Positions 5,468-55,740 of a DNA stretch of 58,211 bases are shown in pieces (within the stretch, counting starts at the first letter, position 1; every line of letters starts with the position of its first letter). The stretch is taken from IMG/VR virus record IMGVR_UViG_3300029763_000003; one strand, given 5' to 3'. The position numbers and the translations under genes are program-made. Origin of the DNA: a virus. The notes beneath the pieces were generated by a model that was given only the letters and a program-made list of their open reading frames with translations, searched no databases and was not told where the DNA came from.

Positions 5468-5665
5468 ATGACAATTGATATTTACAGGCCGGAACTTGTT
5501 GCAGAGTATCGCGGCAACGTTAAAGCTGCTATTAACGCCGGTGCTTATAGTATATGGAACGCGGAACGCATTACAGGCGCTTTTAATTTTGGGCACGGTA
5601 CACAGGCCGATTTTGAGCGACACAAAAAAGCAAATTCCGCCTTGCATCTTTTTATGGAGGTATAA
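5468..5665 (+). CDS. Hypothetical protein (65 aa).
   Basis: AAGGAGGGGG RBS before the ATG at 5468. Confidence 0.55.
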   Translation: MTIDIYRPELVAEYRGNVKAAINAGAYSIWNAERITGAFNFGHGTQADFERHKKANSALHLFMEV

Positions 5666-20076: not shown

Positions 20077-20649
20077 TTAGTTAAAAGGGAGCGAACCGTC
20101 GTCCTCAATCACGGAAAAGTCATCGTTCACACCCTGCGAGTAGCCGGAGCCAGACCCACCAGACAGCGTTTTCTTCGGTCTGACTTCATAATCGCCGGAA
20201 CGAATCTTGTCCACGCTGGTAAAGCGGTCAACAACGAGCTTGGTCTTGACGTTGCCATCGTTGCCCATGTACTCTTCCTCACGGAGAACCACGCCGACCA
20301 GCTTGCCACGCAGGGCCTTTTCATCGTTGTTGAACTTGTAGCCGGGATTGGACTGCTCCACAGCGGTGATGAAACCCTTGAAGAATGGCAGCGCCTTCTC
20401 TTTGTAGCTCTTGATGGTCTTGCCGCCCCATGCCCATTCGCCCGGATTCAGCTTACCGCGCTCGATAAGGGAAGCTGTCTGCTCACGCCAGTAACCCTTG
20501 AACTCGCCCTCTGCGACTTCCCACTCGATGTTCAGACGCTCCTTTGCGGGTTCGTCCGTTGCCTTGCAGATACCGGCAACATAGCCGCCAACAGGCAAGT
20601 CACGGCGTTCGGTGGCTTCCTGCACGTCATTCCAGTTGATGTTCTTCAT
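20077..20649 (-). CDS. Phage SSB-like protein (DUF669-type) with an acidic SSB-style C-terminal tip.
   Basis: It lies next to the Sak4-like ATPase. The C-terminus is DDFSVIEDDGSLPFN. Confidence 0.5.
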   Translation of the reverse strand: MKNINWNDVQEATERRDLPVGGYVAGICKATDEPAKERLNIEWEVAEGEFKGYWREQTASLIERGKLNPGEWAWGGKTIKSYKEKALPFFKGFITAVEQSNPGYKFNNDEKALRGKLVGVVLREEEYMGNDGNVKTKLVVDRFTSVDKIRSGDYEVRPKKTLSGGSGSGYSQGVNDDFSVIEDDGSLPFN

Positions 20650-20652
20650 CTG

Positions 20653-21285
20653 TTACTCTCCTTTGCTGTCCGGCTGAACCGGGATGTTGTAATACTCACG
20701 GATGGTCTTGTCTACGGCGGCGAGGTCGTTCTCGATCAGTGCATCGTTGAACATTCCCAGAGGGGTTTTCACGGTGTCCATCCCATCATTGCGAGTGCTG
20801 AACAGGTATCGCCCATCCTGTACAACGGTTTTCAGGACGATGGTGAAGTACCCCTCCACGCAGACCTTCTCGTCCAGCAGCTTACCGATGGTCTTGAACT
20901 TCTCGCCACCGTCTCCGTCACGCTCGCTGTGACCGAAAAAGTAGACCACAACATCATCCGGCAGTTCTTTCGCCCGCATCAGCAAGGTGTTGAAGTTGGC
21001 TGCCATGTCGGTAAACTTCTGGTATCCAGCGACCTTTGCGTTCCGCATGAACTCGCCAGTCATAAGGTAGGTGGCATCGTCAATGACGATGGACTTACGC
21101 TTGGTGCTGTGGATTGCAGCATCAATCTTGCCGTAGTCGTTTGTGATATAGGTTTTCATGTTGCTGCGGAACGGCAGCGGCTTTCCAAGCACGTTGATAA
21201 CCGCAACCTGTTCCGGGTCAAAGTTCCGAAGCGAAGCGGATTTACCGCTGCCGGAGTGACCGTAGACCATTACTAATACTGCCAT
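20653..21285 (-). CDS. Sak4-like (AAA_24) recombination ATPase.
   Basis: Walker A VYGHSGSGKSASL and Walker B SIVIDDATY. About 210 aa. Confidence 0.65.
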   Translation of the reverse strand: MAVLVMVYGHSGSGKSASLRNFDPEQVAVINVLGKPLPFRSNMKTYITNDYGKIDAAIHSTKRKSIVIDDATYLMTGEFMRNAKVAGYQKFTDMAANFNTLLMRAKELPDDVVVYFFGHSERDGDGGEKFKTIGKLLDEKVCVEGYFTIVLKTVVQDGRYLFSTRNDGMDTVKTPLGMFNDALIENDLAAVDKTIREYYNIPVQPDSKGE

Positions 21286-21300
21286 TTTTCTTTCCTTTCT

Positions 21301-21350
21301 TCGGCTTCATTAGGCTTCATTGTTCTTACTTTGGCTTAACTTGGCTGTAC
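21301..21350 (-). repeat. Mini-array of the same 10-bp-phased RAGCC decamers as at 28771-28970, in inverted orientation.
   Basis: Plus-strand text tcGGCTtcat taGGCTtcat tgttcttact ttGGCTtaac ttGGCTgtac. This corresponds on the minus strand to gtacAGCCaa gttaAGCCaa agtaagaaca atgaAGCCta atgaAGCCga. Confidence 0.7.
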
Positions 21351-21354
21351 AAAA

Positions 21355-21549
21355 TCAACCAGCCATCAGCTCCTCCAACTGTGCCCGGAGGTCTTTCAAC
21401 TCCGCTTCCCTGTCCTCGATTTCAGACCGCAAGTCCTCAATCTCAGCCAGCCGGTCAGCTTCTTTGGCTTCTGCTTCCTGCTCATGGGTCAGGAAATACA
21501 CGCCGTCCTCCGGCTCTGTAACGCCACCGAACCTGTCAAGGTTAATCAT
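21355..21549 (-). CDS. Acidic coiled-coil small protein (64 aa).
   Basis: Internal ATG at 21549. The longer ORF-track start overlaps the upstream gene. Confidence 0.45.
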   Translation of the reverse strand: MINLDRFGGVTEPEDGVYFLTHEQEAEAKEADRLAEIEDLRSEIEDREAELKDLRAQLEELMAG

Positions 21550-23484: not shown

Positions 23485-23703
23485 TCAGTCCTCCTTCTGC
23501 TCGATTTCAAGAATCTTGCAGATGCTCTGGATAATCTTCTCCGGCTTTCGCTCGCCACGAAGAATCTTGTAGAGGTACGAATCGTCAAGGAACAATCCAG
23601 TATCGCTTTGAACCGCCTGAATCAGCTCCGTTTGCTTCATACCTCGCTGCAACAGCTTCATCTTCACTTCCAGCTCAAAGCCAGAACGGAAGTTTTCTTT
23701 CAA
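23485..23703 (-). CDS. Cro-like HTH regulator, first gene of the early operon.
   Basis: TTG start follows GGAGGTG. MKQTELIQAVQSDTGLFLDDSYLYKILRGERKP. Divergent from the repressor gene. Confidence 0.6.
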   Translation of the reverse strand: MKENFRSGFELEVKMKLLQRGMKQTELIQAVQSDTGLFLDDSYLYKILRGERKPEKIIQSICKILEIEQKED

Positions 23704-23730: not shown

Positions 23731-23873
23731 TTGACAAGTACGGAAAACTGTACTAATATAAGGGTGTAAAGAGTTTATACCGTACAGTGTTCTGTACTGC
23801 CCATGTCTGTATTATAGTACAGACTTCTGTACAAGTCAACTCTTTTGTACAAAATTCTGTGCATTTGTATACT
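23731..23873. promoter_or_regulatory. Genetic-switch region with four 16-bp operators (GTACAG-N4-CTGTAC type) and three promoters.
   Basis: Operators at 23738-23753 (GTACGGAAAACTGTAC), 23782-23797 (GTACAGTGTTCTGTAC), 23817-23832 (GTACAGACTTCTGTAC) and 23847-23862 (GTACAAAATTCTGTGC). Plus-strand promoters: TTGACA 23731 / TAATAT 23754, and TTGTAC 23845 / TATACT 23868. Minus-strand promoter TTGACT-17-TATAAT with -35 at 23834-23839 and -10 at 23811-23816. Confidence 0.7.
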
Positions 23874-23896
23874 TGCACAAATATGGGAGTGTTCTT

Positions 23897-24226
23897 ATGT
23901 CGGACTTGTACAGCAACATCCATACACTCTGTGAAAAAGAGGGCATTAAAGACGGAACCCTTTGTAGCAACATTGGGATTCGCCGCAGTTTTCTTTCCGA
24001 ATTGAAAGCTGGAAGAACCAAGAGCCTGTCCGCAGAGGTTCTTTCTAAAATTGCAGCCTACTTCAACGTATCGGTAGACTACCTTCTCACTGGCGAACAA
24101 AAAGAAAACCCGCCCCAGCAGCCGCAAAGTGAAGTCGATGCAGCAGTGGAACGGATTAGAAAAAAGCTTGAATCTATGCCGACAGCGCAGCGTGAAGCGC
24201 TGATGAACCTGATCGAGAAGATGTGA
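23897..24226 (+). CDS. XRE-family repressor (CI-like, no peptidase domain).
   Basis: LCEKEGIKDGTLCSNIGIRRSFLSELKAGRTKSLSAEVLSKIAAYFNVSVDYLL. RBS GGGAG. Confidence 0.7.
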   Translation: MSDLYSNIHTLCEKEGIKDGTLCSNIGIRRSFLSELKAGRTKSLSAEVLSKIAAYFNVSVDYLLTGEQKENPPQQPQSEVDAAVERIRKKLESMPTAQREALMNLIEKM

Positions 24227-24376: not shown

Positions 24377-24429
24377 AAAATAAAAACCCCTTGTGCCGGG
24401 CTGGTGTAGCTCTGCGCAAGGGGTTTTCT
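24377..24429. terminator. Bidirectional rho-independent terminator.
   Basis: Stem CCCCTTG...CAAGGGG is flanked by AAAATAAAAA and TTTTCTG. Confidence 0.7.
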
Positions 24430-24430
24430 G

Positions 24431-24532
24431 TTATTCTAGGCCTAAGGCTTGCTCCGCTGCCGGAATCTTATCAGGGTGTTCCAACAGCCATGCGATAAAC
24501 CTGTCAATCTTAGCTCTTTCTTGTTCGCTCAT
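24431..24532 (-). CDS. Small protein (33 aa), not in the ORF track.
   Basis: GGGAGGA RBS. Translation: MSEQERAKIDRFIAWLLEHPDKIPAAEQALGLE. Confidence 0.4.
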   Translation of the reverse strand: MSEQERAKIDRFIAWLLEHPDKIPAAEQALGLE

Positions 24533-25776: not shown

Positions 25777-25843
25777 TTGTCGAATTATCGCAGTTTTTGA
25801 AGAACATTTTATCCACGTTTATCCACTTTTTGTACACGTTTCA

Positions 25844-26208
25844 TGCAGATTGGGTATACCTTCGCCTTGTCAATTTGTCCCCCATAGGCTATGAATCGAC
25901 AATATTTGCGCGGAATAAATAACGTAGTAGCGATAATACGCAGCTTGCATTTAATCGGTTCGTCAATCCGTCCCCCCATAACATCGGCTTAAAAGTTTTT
26001 CATCCACATTTTGTACACGTTAGAAAGCGCTAACAACGTAAGCACGTTTAATTTTGCCCCATTTCATGCAGATTTAGTATACCTTTAGTTCATACATGGT
26101 GCACACATAGTTAAACATCATTGTACAATAACAACGTATTATCGCATATTTGTGTTTTGCGCAATAAAACCGCTATCGAAAGAACGCTCTGTGCAGTTTT
26201 TGTATACC
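25844..26208 (-). repeat. Three inverted-orientation copies of the Rep iteron (25844-25860, 26067-26083, 26192-26208). Each is paired with an ATCCAC-N-TTTTGTACACGTT box.
   Basis: Read as tgcagattgggtatacc, tgcagatttagtatacc and tgcagtttttgtatacc. Confidence 0.7.
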
Positions 26209-26423
26209 TTTCCATCCACTTTTTGTCCTCGTTTAACGTGCCTAACCGTAGATGGTGCGCCTCTCGGCTTGCTTCTAGCTTGCATTTATTGGCTTTGGAT
26301 GCTATTGTTTTCAACAAGATTTGAAAATTCAAGAAGTGTGTGTTGAAAAGTGTCTGCTTCTTTGCTATTTAGTAGATGTTATTTATCTCTCTTGTTTAGT
26401 ATCTTGTTTAATATATGTAAGGA

Positions 26424-26505
26424 GGCATACCAAATCTGCACGAAGGTATACTAAAACTGCATAGAGGTATACAAAATCTGCACGGACAGGTATACCAAAT
26501 CTGCA
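26424..26505 (+). repeat. Four tandem 17-bp iterons GG(C/T)ATAC(C/T/A)AAA(T/A)CTGCA at 21-23-bp spacing, next to an AT-rich stretch (26340-26420). Plasmid-type oriV.
   Basis: Copies at 26424, 26445, 26466 and 26489. Confidence 0.8.
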
Positions 26506-26524
26506 TGATGGTAGAAATGAACTC

Positions 26525-26553
26525 TTGATAATTCAACCGTGTTGTGATATACT
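26525..26553 (+). promoter_or_regulatory. rep promoter (TTGATA-17-TATACT).
   Basis: TTGATA at 26525-26530 and TATACT at 26548-26553. Confidence 0.6.
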
Positions 26554-26598
26554 GGTATCAACAAGTGGGAAGGATGTGAGAACTTGGGAGACTTGTCA

Positions 26599-27660
26599 AT
26601 GAACAATCTCGTAGAAAAGAGCAAGGCTCTTGTGTGGGCAAAGTTCAGGGACTATACCGCTGGAGAACTTCGTCTGCTAGAAGTATACCTGTCAAGAATC
26701 AACCCTCGCGACCCTGAAAGTGCAACTGTTCAGTTCACACTGAAAGAATACTGTGACTTTTTGGGTATCCGTCTGAACAGTAAAGATTTGAAGCAACAGC
26801 TTAGGCACTTCATTGAGAACACAGTAGCCGTCCCTCTTGAAGGGAAGGACGAATACACTCTGTACACCCTGTTTGCTATGGCGCAAATTCGATTTGACCC
26901 GGAGTGCTTTACATACATGGTCTCAATCAGATGCAACCCTTTGTTGCAGCCTGTGTTCTTTGATATTGCAGAAAAAGGGTATGTTCGGTATCGTCTGCGA
27001 TACACGGCAAGCATGAAGTCTCAGTATAGCATATTGCTTTATTCAATTCTTCGTGACTGGATGAACATGGGGTCGAAGGGGCATGAAATCAGCATCAAGA
27101 AGCTGAAGGAGCAACTTGGTGCGACAGCAAGCAGTTATGACCAGTTCAAATTTTTTAGAGCAAAGGTCTTGGATGTTGCCGTTGCTGAAATCAATGAAAT
27201 ATCCGACATTTCTGTGTCGTATAAAAAACGGACTGTTGGGCACAGAACAGTATCGATTATCTTTGACGTAAAGATAAAACGCTCTGAGCCGGTCATAGAT
27301 GCCGAATCCAGCGAGATTGAGACAACCCCATTAAGAGACGTCTCTGACAACGAAAAGCCTGTAAAAAGCCCTAGAAACGGCGCATACGAAGATGTTGACT
27401 GGGCAAGCCTGATGCCGGGCGTTGACGAAAAGCAGTGTGCAAGCATTGCAAGGTCTGTTGCAAGGCGAATAAAATCTGAATACCCGAATATTCGCAAAGA
27501 CAAGAAGAAGGATGCTGTTGTGAACATTGTGCAGGGCGCATACGAGCAAGCCGTAAAGGGCAAACCGGATGTTGAAGTGCCAGAAGCTTACCTTCGAACG
27601 GTTATCAAGGATTCTCAGTTAAGCAAGTTTGCGACATTCGGGTTCGATTATCTTGAATAA
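26599..27660 (+). CDS. Plasmid replication initiator (Rep_3/RepB-like, iteron-binding).
   Basis: The N-terminus NNLVEKSKALVWAKFRDYTAGELRLLEVYLSRINP...FTLKEYCDFLGI and later SQYSILLYSILRDW are typical Rep_3 patterns. Iterons lie upstream. Confidence 0.75.
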   Translation: MNNLVEKSKALVWAKFRDYTAGELRLLEVYLSRINPRDPESATVQFTLKEYCDFLGIRLNSKDLKQQLRHFIENTVAVPLEGKDEYTLYTLFAMAQIRFDPECFTYMVSIRCNPLLQPVFFDIAEKGYVRYRLRYTASMKSQYSILLYSILRDWMNMGSKGHEISIKKLKEQLGATASSYDQFKFFRAKVLDVAVAEINEISDISVSYKKRTVGHRTVSIIFDVKIKRSEPVIDAESSEIETTPLRDVSDNEKPVKSPRNGAYEDVDWASLMPGVDEKQCASIARSVARRIKSEYPNIRKDKKKDAVVNIVQGAYEQAVKGKPDVEVPEAYLRTVIKDSQLSKFATFGFDYLE

Positions 27661-28700: not shown

Positions 28701-29269
28701 AAAAGTCCAGCAAAAAAACATCCGGCTTGTTGGGCGGGTTTGATTTCCAGCCTATTTCTTCGGGGCGGGCATTAAGCCAAAGTGAGCCAAAGGAAGAAGA
28801 AGTAAGCCAAGCAAAGCCGAACGAAGCCGAACAAGAACAGATTGAGCCCAGTGAAGCCACAGGCAGCCATGCACAGCCTAATGAAGCACGGTTAAGCAAT
28901 ATTAAGCCGAAGCAAGCCAAAGACAGCGGAACACAGCCAAACAATGCAGTAGTAAGCGAAAGTAAGCCAAAGAAGCTGAAACAGGCGAAAGAAGTTCAAC
29001 GTCTTATCGAACAAGGCGATGTTCCAGGAGCACTAGCAGAAGCTGGTTTGACAAAGAAAAAAATCCCGATGCCGGAATCGCATCAGGGCGTTGCAAGCGG
29101 TGATGGCAAGCGTTCTAAGCGCATTACCATCCTTATGAGCGAGGAAGAACGCAAGTACATCAACCGTGAAGCAAGACGGCACGGAATGACCATCGGGCAG
29201 TATGTGTACGCTCTGGCTGCTGCTGCGGCAGACGGAAAGATTGAATTGGAGGATTTTTTAGATGAATGA
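28697..29269 (+). CDS. Ribbon-helix-helix DNA-binding protein with a low-complexity E/K/P/Q/S N-terminal half.
   Basis: The C-terminus KRITILMSEEERKYINREARRHGMTIGQYVYALAAAAA fits an RHH pattern. The GTG start overlaps the upstream stop. Confidence 0.6.
   Translation: MKKSSKKTSGLLGGFDFQPISSGRALSQSEPKEEEVSQAKPNEAEQEQIEPSEATGSHAQPNEARLSNIKPKQAKDSGTQPNNAVVSESKPKKLKQAKEVQRLIEQGDVPGALAEAGLTKKKIPMPESHQGVASGDGKRSKRITILMSEEERKYINREARRHGMTIGQYVYALAAAAADGKIELEDFLDE
28771..28970 (+). repeat. Twenty consecutive decamers with RAGCC in fixed phase (12 exact AGCC, 4 AGCA/AGCG). Candidate centromere/operator array inside a coding sequence.
   Basis: AGCC occupies positions 5-8 of the decamers starting at 28771, 28781, 28801, 28811, 28821, 28841, 28851, 28861, 28871, 28901, 28911, 28931 and 28961. 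AGCA or AGCG occupies them at 28881, 28891, 28921 and 28951. Confidence 0.8.
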
Positions 29270-29681
29270 CGTGTGGACTGATATTGGGCAGAAATATGAA
29301 GCAATGGCAAATATGGGATGCAAGCCTTATGGTTTCAAGCGAGTTCCATTAAATTTTGTGTTTGATGAAGATAAGTCGGTGAAGTGGAACAAAGAACAAG
29401 CGCAAAAGAACAACGATGATTACGACAATGAAGTTAAGCGACTGAATCAAGAAAAAATGAAGCGCAGGGATGAAATCTACGCAGAGATTTATAAGACGAT
29501 TCAAGAAGAAGTCGGTTTTGGGATTTCAGAAAAGAAAGCGGCAAAAATTTGGCGGTACGCTTACGATAGAGGGCATTCAGCAGGATGGTATGAAATAATC
29601 ATCAATTTGGAAGAAATTGAAGAACTCGTAAAGTTCGTATTAGGTAAAAAAACTGAGTTGGAGGATTTCTTAGATGAATGA
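29262..29681 (+). CDS. Hypothetical protein (139 aa).
   Basis: ATGAATGA overlap with the upstream stop. The C-terminus is ELEDFLDE. Confidence 0.6.
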   Translation: MNDVWTDIGQKYEAMANMGCKPYGFKRVPLNFVFDEDKSVKWNKEQAQKNNDDYDNEVKRLNQEKMKRRDEIYAEIYKTIQEEVGFGISEKKAAKIWRYAYDRGHSAGWYEIIINLEEIEELVKFVLGKKTELEDFLDE

Positions 29682-30995: not shown

Positions 30996-31037
30996 AACCC
31001 CTGTGTAGTCACAATGACCGCACAGGGGTTCTGTTTT
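30996..31037. terminator. Bidirectional rho-independent terminator (10-bp stem AACCCCTGTG/CACAGGGGTT).
   Basis: It lies between convergent operons. The T-run CTGTTTT follows. Confidence 0.75.
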
Positions 31038-31674
31038 ACTTATCAGCAATGCAATCCCAGTAGAGATACGCCTTGCCATCTGCAGCATCTGCGTCTTCAA
31101 GGAACGCCTTTGCCATGTCAGCGTAGAAGCCAGGAGTGTCAACGGACTGGCGCTTTGCGACCTGACAATAATCCGAGTACATCATGTTCATAACAGCCCA
31201 GAAATCGTTCGGGTCACAGGTGATATTGCGCTGTTTCGCAACGTCCTGTGTCTGTTCCAGCGTCCAGTGACAGCCCTTCGTGCCATCAGCGTTCACCATG
31301 CTGTCGCACCATTCCTCTGCTTCATCATGGGTGAGGTGCTGGCGCGGCATCTTGATGGAGCGGCCATCTGCACCGCCACGCTCATACTGCCCAGACCGCT
31401 TGTTCCAGTCACCGTTCTGCGAGAAGCCAATTTGCGGCATTCTGCGCCCATTCTCTACGTCAGGGTAGCGGGGGATAGGGTAGGGGTCGATGTAGCGGTT
31501 CTCTTCCTGCGGATAGTAGGGATAACGGTCGTTGCCGCCTTCCAGTTTACGCAGACGGCGTTCCATCTCACGCTCCCTGCGGTCACGCTCTTCCTCAAGG
31601 CGGTCACGCTCCGGCTCACGGTCTTTGTCGTGGTCGCGGAGCATCATCATGCGGCGAAAATTAGTCTTGCCCAT
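31036..31674 (-). CDS. Hypothetical protein (212 aa): R/E/D-rich N-terminal half and a Cys-containing C-terminal domain.
   Basis: RBS GAGGAGG. DREPERDRLEEERDRREREMERRLRKLE, then HLTHDEAEEWCDSMVNADGTKGCHW...NMMYSDYC. Confidence 0.6.
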   Translation of the reverse strand: MGKTNFRRMMMLRDHDKDREPERDRLEEERDRREREMERRLRKLEGGNDRYPYYPQEENRYIDPYPIPRYPDVENGRRMPQIGFSQNGDWNKRSGQYERGGADGRSIKMPRQHLTHDEAEEWCDSMVNADGTKGCHWTLEQTQDVAKQRNITCDPNDFWAVMNMMYSDYCQVAKRQSVDTPGFYADMAKAFLEDADAADGKAYLYWDCIADK

Positions 31675-31687
31675 AATCTATACCTCC

Positions 31688-32059
31688 TCAAGAAATGGAC
31701 GCGGGCGCACCAGCGTGGGAGCGGCAGAAGCAGCCAAGATACTTGAACGTGCCGGTGCCGGTCGCAGACGTTGCAACGCGGGTAGCGTAGCGGGTGCGAG
31801 TGTGGATGCTCTCGGCGGTTGCCTGAGCGCAGTTGCAGTCGGTCAGAGGGTATGCGGTCGTCCCTGCACCGATGGTGATAACCACAGGGGCGTTGATGGT
31901 GGTCGTGTCCGGTATGCTCTGGGCAACCACAATGCAATACTTCTCTCCGTTCTGGTATGCACCAGCAGGGATGTTGATAGTCAGCGTATCGTTGGCGAAA
32001 GTGACCGCCTGACTGATGACCAAGTGCGGGCAGAGTTTGCAGCTTGTTTTGCAAGCCAT
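31688..32059 (-). CDS. Cys-rich beta-rich small protein (123 aa).
   Basis: RBS AGGAGGAAAA. N-terminal MACKTSCKLCPH, internal DCNC and GCFC. Confidence 0.6.
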   Translation of the reverse strand: MACKTSCKLCPHLVISQAVTFANDTLTINIPAGAYQNGEKYCIVVAQSIPDTTTINAPVVITIGAGTTAYPLTDCNCAQATAESIHTRTRYATRVATSATGTGTFKYLGCFCRSHAGAPASIS

Positions 32060-32071
32060 AATGTTTTCCTC

Positions 32072-32109
32072 CTAAAAAATCAGGGGCAGAGGTGTATCAC
32101 CCCTGCCCC
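32072..32109 (-). terminator. Hairpin GGGGCAG/CTGCCCC followed by a T-run on the minus strand, lying between cassette genes. Possible attenuator.
   Basis: Stem at 32083-32089 / 32103-32109. A-run at 32074-32080 on the plus strand. Confidence 0.45.
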
Positions 32110-32144
32110 GATGGTTCACCCGGTGTTATCGGGGAGTGTGTAGG

Positions 32145-33017
32145 TTAGCAGCAGCCGCAGCAGTTCACGCCCACGTTAGGGTTTGCCACCTGATAAGCGG
32201 GAATCGGACGAGGATTGACCCGGTTCAGAATGGTATCGGTCTGCTGGGACATCACGGTGGTCAGAAGCGCATTCTGGCGATCCTGAGAAGCCGCGAACTT
32301 CAGGCTCTGGTTCTCGGCGGTCAGAGTTGCAATCTTATCCTGTGTGAAGTAGTCCATCATGCTGCGGAAGTTGGCGTTGCAGTTGTCCACAATGGCACGG
32401 GCGTTGTCTGCGATAGCCTGACGGGTAGCGCAGTCCTGCTGTGCGATGGTGTACTTCAGGTCGCCGATCAGCTGCTTGTTCTCGCAGCAGCAAGATGCCA
32501 GCTGCGTAGCAAGAGCGGTCTGACCCGCCTGCCGTGCGTTGCCCTCCTGCATGATGGCAAGGCTGATAGCGTTGTCACCGTTGGACACGCTGCGTTCCAG
32601 ACCGTTCACGAGCTGTGCGTTCTGGTAGCCAAGCTGACAGATGGCACTGTTCACACCAGCAAAGCCGTTCGCGATGTTGGCGTTGAGGCCGTTGATCTGC
32701 GCCAGCTGGTCATACCCCAGAGAGCAGATACCGCTCTGGATACCCGCCAGAGAGCGGGAGGTATCCTGCTGGTAGAAGCCCTCAGACAGAGCCGCGCGGG
32801 TGTCTGCACCGCCCTGACCGGTTGCGCCAGTGCCGACCAGATAGGGGATGTAGGCGTTCATGCCGTTGTCACCACCGTTCCGGCCATAGCCGTTTGTGCC
32901 CCAGCCGAAAATGATGGCGAGGATAATAACCGCCCACAGACCTTCGTTGCCGAAGAATCCGCCGTTGTTATTGCCACCGTCCTGCCCAGCCAGATAGCCA
33001 GTTGCAAAATCGTCCAT
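32145..33017 (-). CDS. Membrane-anchored G/N-rich, Cys-containing coiled-coil-like protein (290 aa) ending in CCGCC.
   Basis: ATG at 33017 follows AAAGGAG. GGNNNGGFFGNEGLWAVIILAIIFGWGTNGYGRNGG contains the TM segment. ASCCCENK occurs internally. The C-terminus is NPNVGVNCCGCC. Confidence 0.6.
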   Translation of the reverse strand: MDDFATGYLAGQDGGNNNGGFFGNEGLWAVIILAIIFGWGTNGYGRNGGDNGMNAYIPYLVGTGATGQGGADTRAALSEGFYQQDTSRSLAGIQSGICSLGYDQLAQINGLNANIANGFAGVNSAICQLGYQNAQLVNGLERSVSNGDNAISLAIMQEGNARQAGQTALATQLASCCCENKQLIGDLKYTIAQQDCATRQAIADNARAIVDNCNANFRSMMDYFTQDKIATLTAENQSLKFAASQDRQNALLTTVMSQQTDTILNRVNPRPIPAYQVANPNVGVNCCGCC

Positions 33018-33156
33018 AACAAAACTCCTTTCAGTTTTGCGTATGCTATCCCACCGCCGTATGCGATGGGCGAAGCCAAACAAAAGCGGTTTTTGTCAAG
33101 TCCGCAAAACTGAGAAGCGTTTCGCTTAGAGGAATGCTTATTTTAGGATCGTTAAG

Positions 33157-33318
33157 TCAGCTTGGAGGGTTGTCTTTTTTATCTTTTGGGTCATCCCACT
33201 TTTTGCTGGCAGCACCGAAAATGAAGCCAAGCATTAAAGGAACCCATATTTTGTCATCGCCACACAGATTGTTGATGTCAAAATCTTTTTCGGAATGGCT
33301 GTTTTCAAAATCATCCAT
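33157..33318 (-). CDS. Small membrane protein (53 aa), not in the ORF track.
   Basis: AGGAG RBS. Translation: MDDFENSHSEKDFDINNLCGDDKIWVPLMLGFIFGAASKKWDDPKDKKDNPPS. Confidence 0.45.
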   Translation of the reverse strand: MDDFENSHSEKDFDINNLCGDDKIWVPLMLGFIFGAASKKWDDPKDKKDNPPS

Positions 33319-33330
33319 TGCAAAGTCTCC

Positions 33331-33582
33331 TCACTTCGGAAGCGTCAAATTCAGGACGCTTGCCAGCTGGTTCAGGTCGATGCCACGCTCTTTGGCGAGG
33401 TTCTGCGCCATCGTTCGGAGTTGCGCTTCGTTTTTGCCCTGAATCAGGTTCAAGCCCTGCATGATGGGGGCATTCTGCCCGCTCAACTGCTGGATAAGCC
33501 CCATCGGGTTTTGCCCGGCACGAGCCAGATTTGCAAGCTGCATGATGGGGCTGTGAGTAATCATATCAAATGGAGAGGACAT
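33331..33582 (-). CDS. Hypothetical Q/N/L-rich protein (83 aa).
   Basis: RBS GAAAGGAGAA. Confidence 0.55.
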   Translation of the reverse strand: MSSPFDMITHSPIMQLANLARAGQNPMGLIQQLSGQNAPIMQGLNLIQGKNEAQLRTMAQNLAKERGIDLNQLASVLNLTLPK

Positions 33583-33585
33583 CGC

Positions 33586-34104
33586 TTATTCTCCTTTCTT
33601 CGCTGTGGCAGTGGGCTTAGAAAAGCTCTTCTGCCACTTTTCCAGTTCGTCCAGCCGATGCACAAGGGCGTTGTACTGCTCAATAGGCACGTACTGCTGT
33701 GTCGGTGCAGCGGTCTGCTGTGCCTGTTGTGCTTGCATCTGCCGCCATGCTTCCGGGCTGTAGAACTCCTGTACATAGGATTCACAGGTGTCCGGGTTGA
33801 GCCGCTTGCAATAAATCACACCGCTGCGCAAGTCCGGGCAGTAGGTCGGTCTGCCGTACAGGTCAGACGGTATTGCCAAAAACTCCTCCCTGCTGGAAAC
33901 GGGTCTACCAAGCAACCAACCGCCATCTTGTGCCGACTGCTGAACAGGCTGTTGCCCATTCATCGGCTGCGGACGCTGCGGTTGTGCCTGTTGCATCTGC
34001 GTGTTGGGTAGGGGAGTGGCAAGCCCGACCGTACCCATGCCGCCGTAAGGATTGACAGGCTGCTGTGGAACGTAGGGCGCGCCGGGTGTCGGATAATAGC
34101 TCAT
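33586..34104 (-). CDS. Hypothetical protein with a P/Q-rich N-terminus and a Cys-containing core (172 aa).
   Basis: ATG at 34104 follows AAGGAGGGA. MSYYPTPGAPYVPQQPVNPYGG... Confidence 0.6.
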   Translation of the reverse strand: MSYYPTPGAPYVPQQPVNPYGGMGTVGLATPLPNTQMQQAQPQRPQPMNGQQPVQQSAQDGGWLLGRPVSSREEFLAIPSDLYGRPTYCPDLRSGVIYCKRLNPDTCESYVQEFYSPEAWRQMQAQQAQQTAAPTQQYVPIEQYNALVHRLDELEKWQKSFSKPTATAKKGE

Positions 34105-34150
34105 AAAAACATCCCTCCTTGTGCATCCAGTGTACCGCATCAGCAAAAAG

Positions 34151-34182
34151 CGAAGGACAACGAAGCGACAACGAAGGACAAA
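34151..34182. repeat. Three tandem 10-11-nt repeats CGAAGGACAA / CGAAGCGACAA / CGAAGGACAAA, just upstream of the cassette.
   Basis: Read directly. Confidence 0.6.
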
Positions 34183-55663: not shown

Positions 55664-55740
55664 TGGGTGCGGGGGCTGGATTTGAACCAGCGTCCTCCAG
55701 CTTATGAGGCTGGCGAGCTACCGTGCTGCTCTACTCCGCC
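55664..55740 (-). tRNA. tRNA-Met (anticodon CAU), initiator-like. CCA is encoded.
   Basis: Hand-folded: GGCGGAG-TA-GAGC-AGCACGGTA-GCTC-G-CCAGC-CTCATAA-GCTGG-AGGAC-GCTGG-TTCAAAT-CCAGC-CCCCGCA-C-CCA. There are two acceptor-stem mismatches (1:72 and 6:67). Confidence 0.75.

Follow-up and report, generated by a model that had tools for sequence, protein, structure and literature searches.

The 58,211-nucleotide stretch of viral DNA analysed here (IMG/VR record IMGVR_UViG_3300029763_000003, hereafter the window) belongs to a tailed phage encoding a terminase, a portal, a major head protein, a tape measure and a DnaB-like helicase, and it also carries plasmid functions, namely a Rep3 initiator with its iterons, a ParA and a 190-aa open reading frame (ORF190) with a probable ribbon-helix-helix (RHH) domain. 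Two arrays of phased decamers are found in this phage-plasmid: a large one embedded in ORF190, the candidate centromere-binding protein (CBP), and a short, inverted one (the mini-array) inside a long leftward operon of early phage genes. We report here that both share one motif, which changes in main and short array together from one lineage to another, and that the mini-array is very probably a second, cognate site for the partition CBP.

The two arrays and the partition genes

Read on the minus strand from 21350 to 21301, the mini-array consists of five phased decamers, 50 bases in all (Table 1). The plus-strand GGCT tetramers at 21303, 21313, 21333 and 21343 represent four minus-strand AGCC cores in a 10-bp register, arranged 2 + 2 on either side of a degenerate third unit. 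Together with the ribosome-binding region of the following gene, the array takes up the entire 69-nt gap (21286-21354) between the TGA of the upstream gene (21357-21355, minus strand) and the ATG of a Sak4-like gene at 21285. This sequence, its coordinates and the length of the gap had been given in a first-pass annotation made from the letters alone and were found exact on re-reading, as was the occurrence in both arrays of spacer decamers devoid of AGCC, AGTAAGAACA in the mini-array and AGGAAGAAGA (28791) and ACAAGAACAG (28831) in the large one.

The same annotation held that the two loci obey a single decamer grammar, a likeness that lies far beyond chance. A position weight matrix was trained on the large array (28771-28970) alone, the score being the sum over five phased units; the mini-array reached 47.6, whereas the best background place on either strand of the 58 kb reached 19.5. 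In 300 dinucleotide-preserving shuffles, made after masking of the large array, scores peaked at 18.1 ± 1.9 (z = 15.7 for the mini-array). Four of five phased AGCC or GGCT cores appeared in none of these 300 shuffles and are hence not expected by chance, which answers the shuffling check proposed earlier. The densest 60-bp stretch of GGCT in the whole 58 kb is the mini-array and that of AGCC is the large array, and an independent repeat search returned the pair 21297-21346 / 28785-28834 as the longest inverted repeat within 21-30 kb. The mini-array resembles the first five units of the main array, degenerate third unit included (71% over 45 nt). No further site of two, three or five decamers was found in the window, which thus holds exactly two such loci.

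The large array belongs to a type Ib-like partition locus. The ATPase domain of ParA begins at residue 2, in agreement with the Walker ParA of about 200-260 aa without helix-turn-helix (HTH) of this type; its match to the NCBIfam model ParA_partition (E = 1e-29, 103.5 bits) stays well under the 180-bit cut-off of that model. Relatives were studied through 80 fetched contigs out of 505 related ones in IMG/VR, and counts are given among 83 related loci. ParA and ORF190 both occur in 83/83 loci (median identity 97 and 89%, respectively), with ORF190 downstream of parA in 82/83, the gene order of type Ib systems. ORF85, which intervenes in the window, occurs in 19/83 relatives, has no family or structure matches and was ruled out as a partition protein. 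Between the stop codon of ParA and the start of the CBP gene lie 3 to 737 bp, and the two genes are directly adjacent (3 bp) in 14 loci. Because ORF190 is present in all 83 loci, ORF85 in only 19 and the distance varies, ORF85 is best seen as a variable insert and ORF190 as the constant companion of ParA. Insertions into this slot ahead of the RHH gene are variable, other relatives having inserts of 150-740 bp or none.

ORF190 has a basic peptide (MKKSSKKTSGLLGGFDFQ) at its N terminus, followed by the disordered linker that the array encodes, a helical hairpin, a putative C-terminal RHH domain and an acidic tail. In an AlphaFold2 (AF2) model built on a 25-sequence alignment, the array-encoded residues 19-88 are predicted to be disordered (pLDDT < 50), and a short helical hairpin is followed by an extended segment and two helices (149-161 and 166-178, pLDDT 80-91). 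Nearly all top Foldseek matches are RHH proteins (CopG with TM 0.86 over 43 columns, TacA, Arc, AmrZ, CdbA, AtaR and NikA), all with E >= 1.2 because the domain is tiny. The Pfam NikA-like RHH family is matched with E = 7e-6 and 26.5 bits, 0.5 bit below the 27-bit cut-off, and protein and profile searches of PDB sequences gave nothing relevant. These lines of evidence, each weak singly, agree with one another and are consistent with a C-terminal RHH fold. The RHH protein of the first-pass annotation would then be encoded right after parA, by the very gene that carries the large array. With a small ParA, a CBP gene downstream and a repeat array as presumed centromere, ORF190 is likely a type Ib-like CBP. 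Its relatives number 34 among 1.84 billion representative proteins (50%-clustered library), and the full-length ones have in common the N-terminal peptide and the RHH domain, with differing linkers. The peptide, MK.(S/T)SKK.SGLLGG, is conserved across CBP types sharing 95-97% identical ParA, and we infer that it contacts ParA.

The main array follows the consensus A-[GTC]-N-A-A-G-C-C-[AG]-A. Its 10-bp period is out of frame, the motif being read in all three phases as disordered linker, and decamers starting at codon position 2 never have a T at unit position 3, which would make an in-frame TAA. Divergence at codon positions 1/2/3 is 0.008 / 0.001 / 0.150 in the RHH domain and 0.028 / 0.031 / 0.056 in the array part of ORF190; at third positions, the AGCC cores of the array diverge by 0.024 vs 0.113-0.150 in the rest of the gene. 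Going by this pattern and the low divergence of the cores, selection in the main array acts on the DNA motif and not on the amino acids. The family has lengths of 190/180/170/160/150 aa, multiples of 10 aa, and the arrays hence lengthen or shorten by 30 bp, the smallest step compatible with both reading frame and repeat phase. Upstream of parA, decamer arrays are absent both from the window, where the rep-parA gap measures 15 nt, and from the 80 relatives.

Other repeats touch ORF190. Its 3' end (29236-29269) and that of the next gene, ORF139 (29648-29681), share a 34-nt repeat (88%), so that both proteins end in ...ELEDFLDE, overlapping the next start codon (ATGAATGA); the repeat may reflect a tail used for interaction by both proteins, or else a joint left by recombination. 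A direct repeat of 31 nt, 84% identical and too long for chance, links 29066-29096, which encodes PMPESHQGV in the RHH protein, to 24454-24484, just past a bidirectional terminator (24383-24427) downstream of the CI-like gene; two plus-strand copies are found in 35/83 relatives. A perfect 16-nt inverted match, AAGCCAAAGAAGCTGA, joins the last main-array unit (28964-28979) to the small coiled-coil gene preceding the mini-array (21455-21470), and is present in about half of the relatives.

Conservation and co-variation among relatives

When the search for phased decamers was extended to the relatives, the mini-array was found in every fetched locus with enough upstream sequence, about 75 relatives; for the two loci without a visible copy, the whole region lies beyond the 10-kb flank. 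It stands 7.1-9.8 kb from the main array. The AGCC cores diverge from the consensus by 0.018-0.022, the positions outside them by 0.085-0.089 and the degenerate third unit by about 0.05, compared to 0.096 and 0.144 at third codon positions of the flanking genes. Conservation of the cores exceeds that of synonymous sites nearby by a factor of 4-7, the pattern expected of a protein-recognition site with a 10-bp register.

The neighbouring genes are less constant. Downstream of the mini-array lies Sak4 in 40 loci, a 128-aa zinc-ribbon protein in 22, an HNH endonuclease in about 10 and an Erf-like annealase in 4, and upstream is either of two unrelated ORFs, the coiled-coil ORF being replaced in about 10 relatives. 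The mini-array is therefore not tied to Sak4 as such and persists when its neighbours on either side are replaced. In the window the array precedes Sak4, as the first-pass annotation has it; in many relatives other genes follow. The HNH gene is inserted between the mini-array and the gene that follows, and the Erf-like annealase takes the place of Sak4 (L010, L057, L059, L064 and others for these two arrangements); the mini-array marks a hot spot of module exchange.

DNA was recovered for four further CBP types (P0131, P0136/P0167, P0135 and P0126); P0131, P0135 and P0136 are not in IMG/VR. The P0131 locus (L089) harbors a linker array of 12 decamers AGnGGnAGTC and, in the interval from the rep stop to the parA ribosome-binding site, a mini-array of 5-6 units of the same motif, which scores 50.5 vs a shuffle maximum of 14.2 ± 2.1. 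Loci of the P0136/P0167 type (L096, L177-L179) have a linker array of TACAGCGGAA decamers, with an inverted five-unit mini-array in L096 and L177 that belongs to a leftward operon, inside the 5' coding part of its first gene. The two score 53.2 and 44.7, respectively, and 0/200 shuffles reach the L096 score. These TACAGCGCAG-type decamers (L096 5323-5372, L177 about 5600-5647, minus strand) are in the gene for a P/Q/Y-rich protein of 171-174 aa, whose homologue in the window (about 33.6-34.1 kb) is without array. In the P0135 locus (L180), the linker has 20-bp units. Of the three copies of GTAGTCACTT present in 4.3 kb, two belong to the linker and the third to the rep-parA gap, in which CACTTTG recurs at 10-bp spacing, three times in all.

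The motif thus differs between lineages, and main and short motifs match within the genome in three other lineages (P0131, P0136/P0167 and P0135), so that a motif common to presumed centromere and distant locus recurs in lineage-specific forms. In a cross-scan, the matrix of each lineage scored high on the arrays of its own lineage alone; on the related L096 arrays, the AAGCC matrix gave 27-30 vs 53-58 for the cognate matrix. At the level of sequence, no other observation argues as strongly as this co-variation for a single binder of both arrays, and it strongly favours the earlier proposal that one protein would act at both. A putative CBP site upstream of parA, the feature associated with autoregulation, is absent from the window, present in L089 and L180 and borderline in L084 and L088.

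The fourth type, P0126 (L084-L088), is characterized by a 9-bp array and by an RHH beta-strand RVSVPMS in place of RITILMS, its CBP gene overlapping the parA stop. Array and RHH domain (beta-strand; period of 9 vs 10 bp) have here been swapped jointly, as a cassette. In L084 and L088, the 9-mer mini-arrays ahead of par are borderline and were not counted as evidence, with scores of 27.0 and 24.3 that are reached by 0 and 2 of 200 shuffles, respectively; the 9-bp matrix scores 25.9 at an unrelated place in the window. A last type, P0150/P0176 (L095, L181), has no periodic linker array, and the embedded-centromere design is for this reason not universal in the CBP family. L095, a more remote element, bears an integrase, a ParA and an RHH homologue of 143 aa; in it, a 15-bp x 9.9 tandem repeat (GGAAAACCGGGAAGC) lies at 2839-2986 inside an upstream HTH_36 gene.

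Proposed role and rival explanations

In three of four lineages, the mini-array follows a stop codon and precedes the ribosome-binding site of the next gene, and it is because of this placement that an intra-operon roadblock or operator is proposed. Overall, we favour, with some reserve, a secondary CBP site that would work in the manner of an operator or roadblock within the leftward early operon; that its main role would be to dampen transcription of the downstream genes is possible, without our calling it probable. RHH dimers would occupy successive decamers cooperatively, on one helix face. The long array would build the partition complex, coupled to ParA by the conserved N-terminal peptide, and the short array would act as an operator-like roadblock or occupancy sensor, so that expression of the downstream recombination/replication module would depend on the level of free partition protein, i.e., on plasmid state. 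In L089 and L180, the rep-parA mini-arrays would provide classical negative feedback on the par genes, and in the window lineage the roadblock would control the module downstream of 21.3 kb in the early-left operon, not parA. This suggests that plasmid segregation may be wired to phage gene control. A broader and rather doubtful scenario would make the partition protein a portable cassette with its own centromere in the reading frame, short copies of which serve as roadblocks in phage operons; the pool of free protein, titrated by the centromere arrays and hence by plasmid copies, would report plasmid state to early phage genes, and the target would have moved repeatedly, to the rep-parA junction, the opening gene of the DUF7841 operon or the recombinase module.

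Parallels exist for several parts of this proposal, which would work like a type Ib partition with secondary CBP sites, as do omega, StbA, KorB and SopB of N15. For lambda O, the binding repeats of ori-lambda are embedded in the linker-coding part of its own gene; unlike ORF190, lambda O is a replication initiator with 19-bp iterons, whereas the Rep3 iterons are here separate from the array. On TP228, ParG binds besides its centromere a smaller operator (OF) made of the same boxes, and thereby autoregulates; the rep-parA mini-arrays of L089 and L180 correspond to this operator. The TP228 ParF/ParG/parH system is of type Ib, with an RHH protein on a centromere of about 100 bp of degenerate short boxes (PMC3130281). 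It differs by its tetramer boxes, its AT-rich spacers and its operator at the par promoter, whereas the mini-array of the window is 7.4 kb off, in a phage operon.

The omega protein of pSM19035, a plasmid of Streptococcus pyogenes, is an RHH ParB that binds heptads and acts in both partition and gene control (PMC9499535). Like delta/omega, the system described here has a small Walker ParA, a probable RHH CBP with a putative N-terminal ParA-interacting tail and, as probable binding sites, short non-palindromic repeats in rows at more than one place on the replicon. The omega heptads are 7 bp long, of mixed orientation and located over the copS, delta and omega promoters, whereas the repeats here are 10 bp long, direct and without promoter; moreover, the main array is here in the CBP coding sequence, none precedes parA and the replicon is a tailed phage. 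No sequence similarity of ORF190 to omega was detected, nor any PDB sequence match. The comparison with pSM19035 made by the first-pass annotation is thus apt for one RHH partition protein with several repeat arrays, and not for a promoter overlap at the mini-array.

The closest match to a big array plus a mini-array with a different job is StbA of R388, whose centromere is made of two sets of five repeats with an 11-bp period and whose short arrays of 2, 3 or 5 repeats are operators of unrelated genes that give no stability alone (bioRxiv 10.1101/2022.04.29.490116). StbA differs as an HTH protein without cognate ParA, with short arrays in promoters, on a conjugative plasmid. The RHH ParB of pCXC100 (type Ib, Leifsonia) has a disordered N-terminal half and binds cooperatively nine unspaced, non-palindromic 9-bp direct repeats (PMC3074162), an array of the kind of the 10-bp and 9-bp arrays seen here. 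Unlike here, pCXC100 has a single non-coding centromere by the par operon, with no secondary array reported in another operon, and no sequence homology to its ParA/ParB was detected. In the phage-plasmid N15, the SopAB partition protein binds sites IR1-4 scattered in the phage genome (PMC7205306); these are single palindromic sites of a type Ia system with an HTH ParB, without repeat arrays and with none in the ParB linker. In the literature searched, we found neither an out-of-frame centromere in the CBP's own linker, with 30-bp indels and cassette exchange together with the RHH domain, nor secondary arrays inside phage operons or coding regions.

Several observations weigh against the reading of the mini-array as a cognate, roadblock-like site. 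The RHH assignment falls just short of the Pfam cut-off and its Foldseek E-values are high, as seen above. The gap 21286-21354 contains no sigma-70-like promoter (>= 9/12, either strand; scan for sigma-70-type consensus) and the 69 nt hold no terminator-like site. The nearest minus-strand promoter-like site is at 23839-23811, and the mini-array lies inside the operon about 2.5 kb past it; a promoter operator of the omega type is consequently not borne out. The 2 + 2 split of the cores may make a poor centromere; ParA activation on pSM19035 requires four or more contiguous repeats (PMC9499535). Lastly, four P0126-type loci (L084, L085, L086 and L088), those with enough flank and of the same phage group as the window (ParA 95-97%, Sak4 98% identical), have a different CBP cassette with a 9-bp array and an intact AAGCC mini-array (scores 43-50), and neither an AAGCC main array nor an ORF190-type RHH is found within 10 kb in L086 and L088. 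The presence of the mini-array does not strictly track a cognate CBP in cis, and its retention in these recombinants means that some other factor may also need it. Their rarity (5 loci vs 505 of the main type) suggests that P0126 loci are recent cassette replacements, in which the orphan site would not yet have decayed. Downstream of the new cassette, L084 (10859-11215) and L085 (10829-11185) keep an ORF190-type remnant (residues 72-190, five decamers plus RHH) with no in-frame ATG with a ribosome-binding site, the sole ATG with a good one being out of frame. It resembles a snapshot of cassette replacement.

The main rival, which we consider unlikely, is an accessory centromere or bridging site, where the CBP would bind the mini-array to build or condense the partition complex with no role in expression. 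In one possible form, pairing of the two inverted arrays would loop out 7.4 kb with the immunity region, ori, rep and parA. It agrees with the shared motif, the mutual inversion of the arrays and the lack of a promoter at the mini-array, and dispersed centromere sites are known from N15 (IR1-4; PMC7205306) and from pSM19035, with six parS sites (PMC9499535). However, other lineages place the mini-array variously with respect to ori and par (in the rep-parA gap, or 3 kb downstream in another operon), and three of four cases are at a gene start or ribosome-binding site, more like regulatory wiring than architecture. The 2 + 2 cores compare poorly with the four contiguous repeats of pSM19035, and the small arrays of R388 give no stability. 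Conservation that is specific to the cores and in 10-bp phase, with near-neutral non-core positions, points rather to protein recognition of AGCC and renders improbable a module-junction element independent of the partition protein, be it an exchange-promoting boundary or the site of another phage factor, with a motif likeness that is merely historical. Such an element would fit the alternative genes on both sides in relatives, the intact site in four loci with a different CBP cassette and the resemblance to the first five main-array units down to the degenerate third; it accords less well with matching main and mini motifs independently in three other lineages, and the remnant in L084 and L085 suggests that their cassette arrived recently.

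Since all mini-arrays of the window, L089, L096, L177, L084 and L088 have the sense orientation and most of them adjoin a ribosome-binding site, an RNA-level element in the leader of the downstream mRNA, either an unstructured purine-rich translation enhancer or a protein-binding leader, might also be envisaged, and is in our view very improbable. Indeed, a strict phase of 10 bp is characteristic of duplex DNA, the same motif builds a 200-bp array next to an RHH DNA-binding domain, and the L096 and L177 mini-arrays are in a coding region, not a leader. A structured RNA or known RNA family is ruled out by a non-significant intergenic fold (z = -1.5) and no Rfam match. As for an accident of composition in intergenic DNA rich in A and G, isolated AAGCC-like decamers do occur commonly in the window, but the shuffles, the core conservation in about 75 relatives and the co-variation of the motif in other lineages mean that, on sequence grounds, chance counts as refuted already.

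The secondary-site reading matters for a very abundant human-gut phage-plasmid family, with at least 505 related IMG/VR contigs and about 800 partition-protein clusters (90% identity), so that the role of the mini-array would play out in many guts. It would offer a concrete handle on phage-plasmid coordination: one protein, two arrays and four mutable AGCC cores. A linker-embedded centromere swapped together with its DNA-binding domain would explain how specificity is kept under rampant mosaic exchange, and repeat arrays in low-complexity coding regions could serve to predict partition-protein specificities and incompatibility groups from sequence.

Genome context

Table 1. Coordinates of the arrays and of the genes and sites around them in the window
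Feature	Position	Strand	Remarks
Mini-array decamer 1, GTACAGCCAA	21350-21341	minus	
Mini-array decamer 2, GTTAAGCCAA	21340-21331	minus	
Mini-array decamer 3, AGTAAGAACA	21330-21321	minus	Degenerate, without AGCC
Mini-array decamer 4, ATGAAGCCTA	21320-21311	minus	
Mini-array decamer 5, ATGAAGCCGA	21310-21301	minus	
Ribosome-binding region AGAAAGGAAAGAAAA and ATG of downstream gene	21283..21300	minus	Abuts last decamer; kept with array in relatives
Main array, 20 phased decamers, consensus AGTAAGCCAA	28771..28970	plus	Presumed centromere, in CBP linker coding sequence
ParA-type Walker ATPase, 255 aa	27676..28443	plus	No N-terminal HTH; AAA_31 E = 1e-53, CbiA, phrog_164
ORF85, 85 aa	28443..28700	plus	Variable insert between parA and CBP gene
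ORF190, candidate CBP, 190 aa	28697..29269	plus	Just after parA; large array inside
Small coiled-coil ORF, 64 aa from ATG	21355..21549	minus	TGA stop just before mini-array
Sak4-like single-strand annealing protein, 210 aa	20653..21285	minus	phrog_2872, E = 7.6e-75
190-aa protein ending ...EDDGSLPFN	20077..20649	minus	SSB-like acidic tip
Leftward early promoter-like site TTGACT-17-TATAAT	23811..23839	minus	Consensus match alone
Rep3 initiator	26584-27660		
Rep3 iterons, 4 x 21-23 bp, AGGTATACCAAATCTGCA...	26423-26513	plus	Unlike decamer family

The strong early-left promoter-like site, at which the operon begins, lies between a Cro-like gene (23485-23703, minus strand) and a CI-like gene (23873-24226, plus strand). 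The operon continues downstream of the mini-array with Sak4, the protein with an SSB-like acidic tip and a Holliday-junction resolvase. The 190-aa product has no Pfam match, and its putative assignment as an SSB comes from its C-terminal motif alone. No integrase was found among the large ORFs of the window.

The Rep3 iterons were ruled out as a source of the decamers, as they form a separate 21-23-bp family without similarity to them. The first-pass annotation had evoked a link with copy control, of which there is no indication, these iterons being a different repeat. Four further copies, inverted or dispersed, are found at 25839-26210, and a promoter-like site (26525-26553) lies just downstream of the tandem iterons, before rep. 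Among relatives, Rep is mosaic, with 47-100% identity.

Three tandem CGAAGGACAA-like decamers are located at 34151-34181, just upstream of the DUF7841-containing leftward operon (31036-34107), whose first gene has its ATG near 34107 on the minus strand. They have a counterpart in the homologous divergent region of L096, at about 5520-5560, and may be the operator of another regulator.

The element has no match in the PLSDB plasmid database, and its matches among GenBank phages are limited to three unannotated human faecal scaffolds. In 185,579 species genomes, no relatives of ORF190 were found, and the best matches of ParA come from various phyla and do not exceed 45% identity. Judged by the terminase (52%), Clostridium phage Maintenon is the nearest named phage; it has no close ParA. 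The host is probably a Firmicute. A tRNA-Met (CAT) gene lies at 55664-55740 on the minus strand, between the portal and terminase genes.

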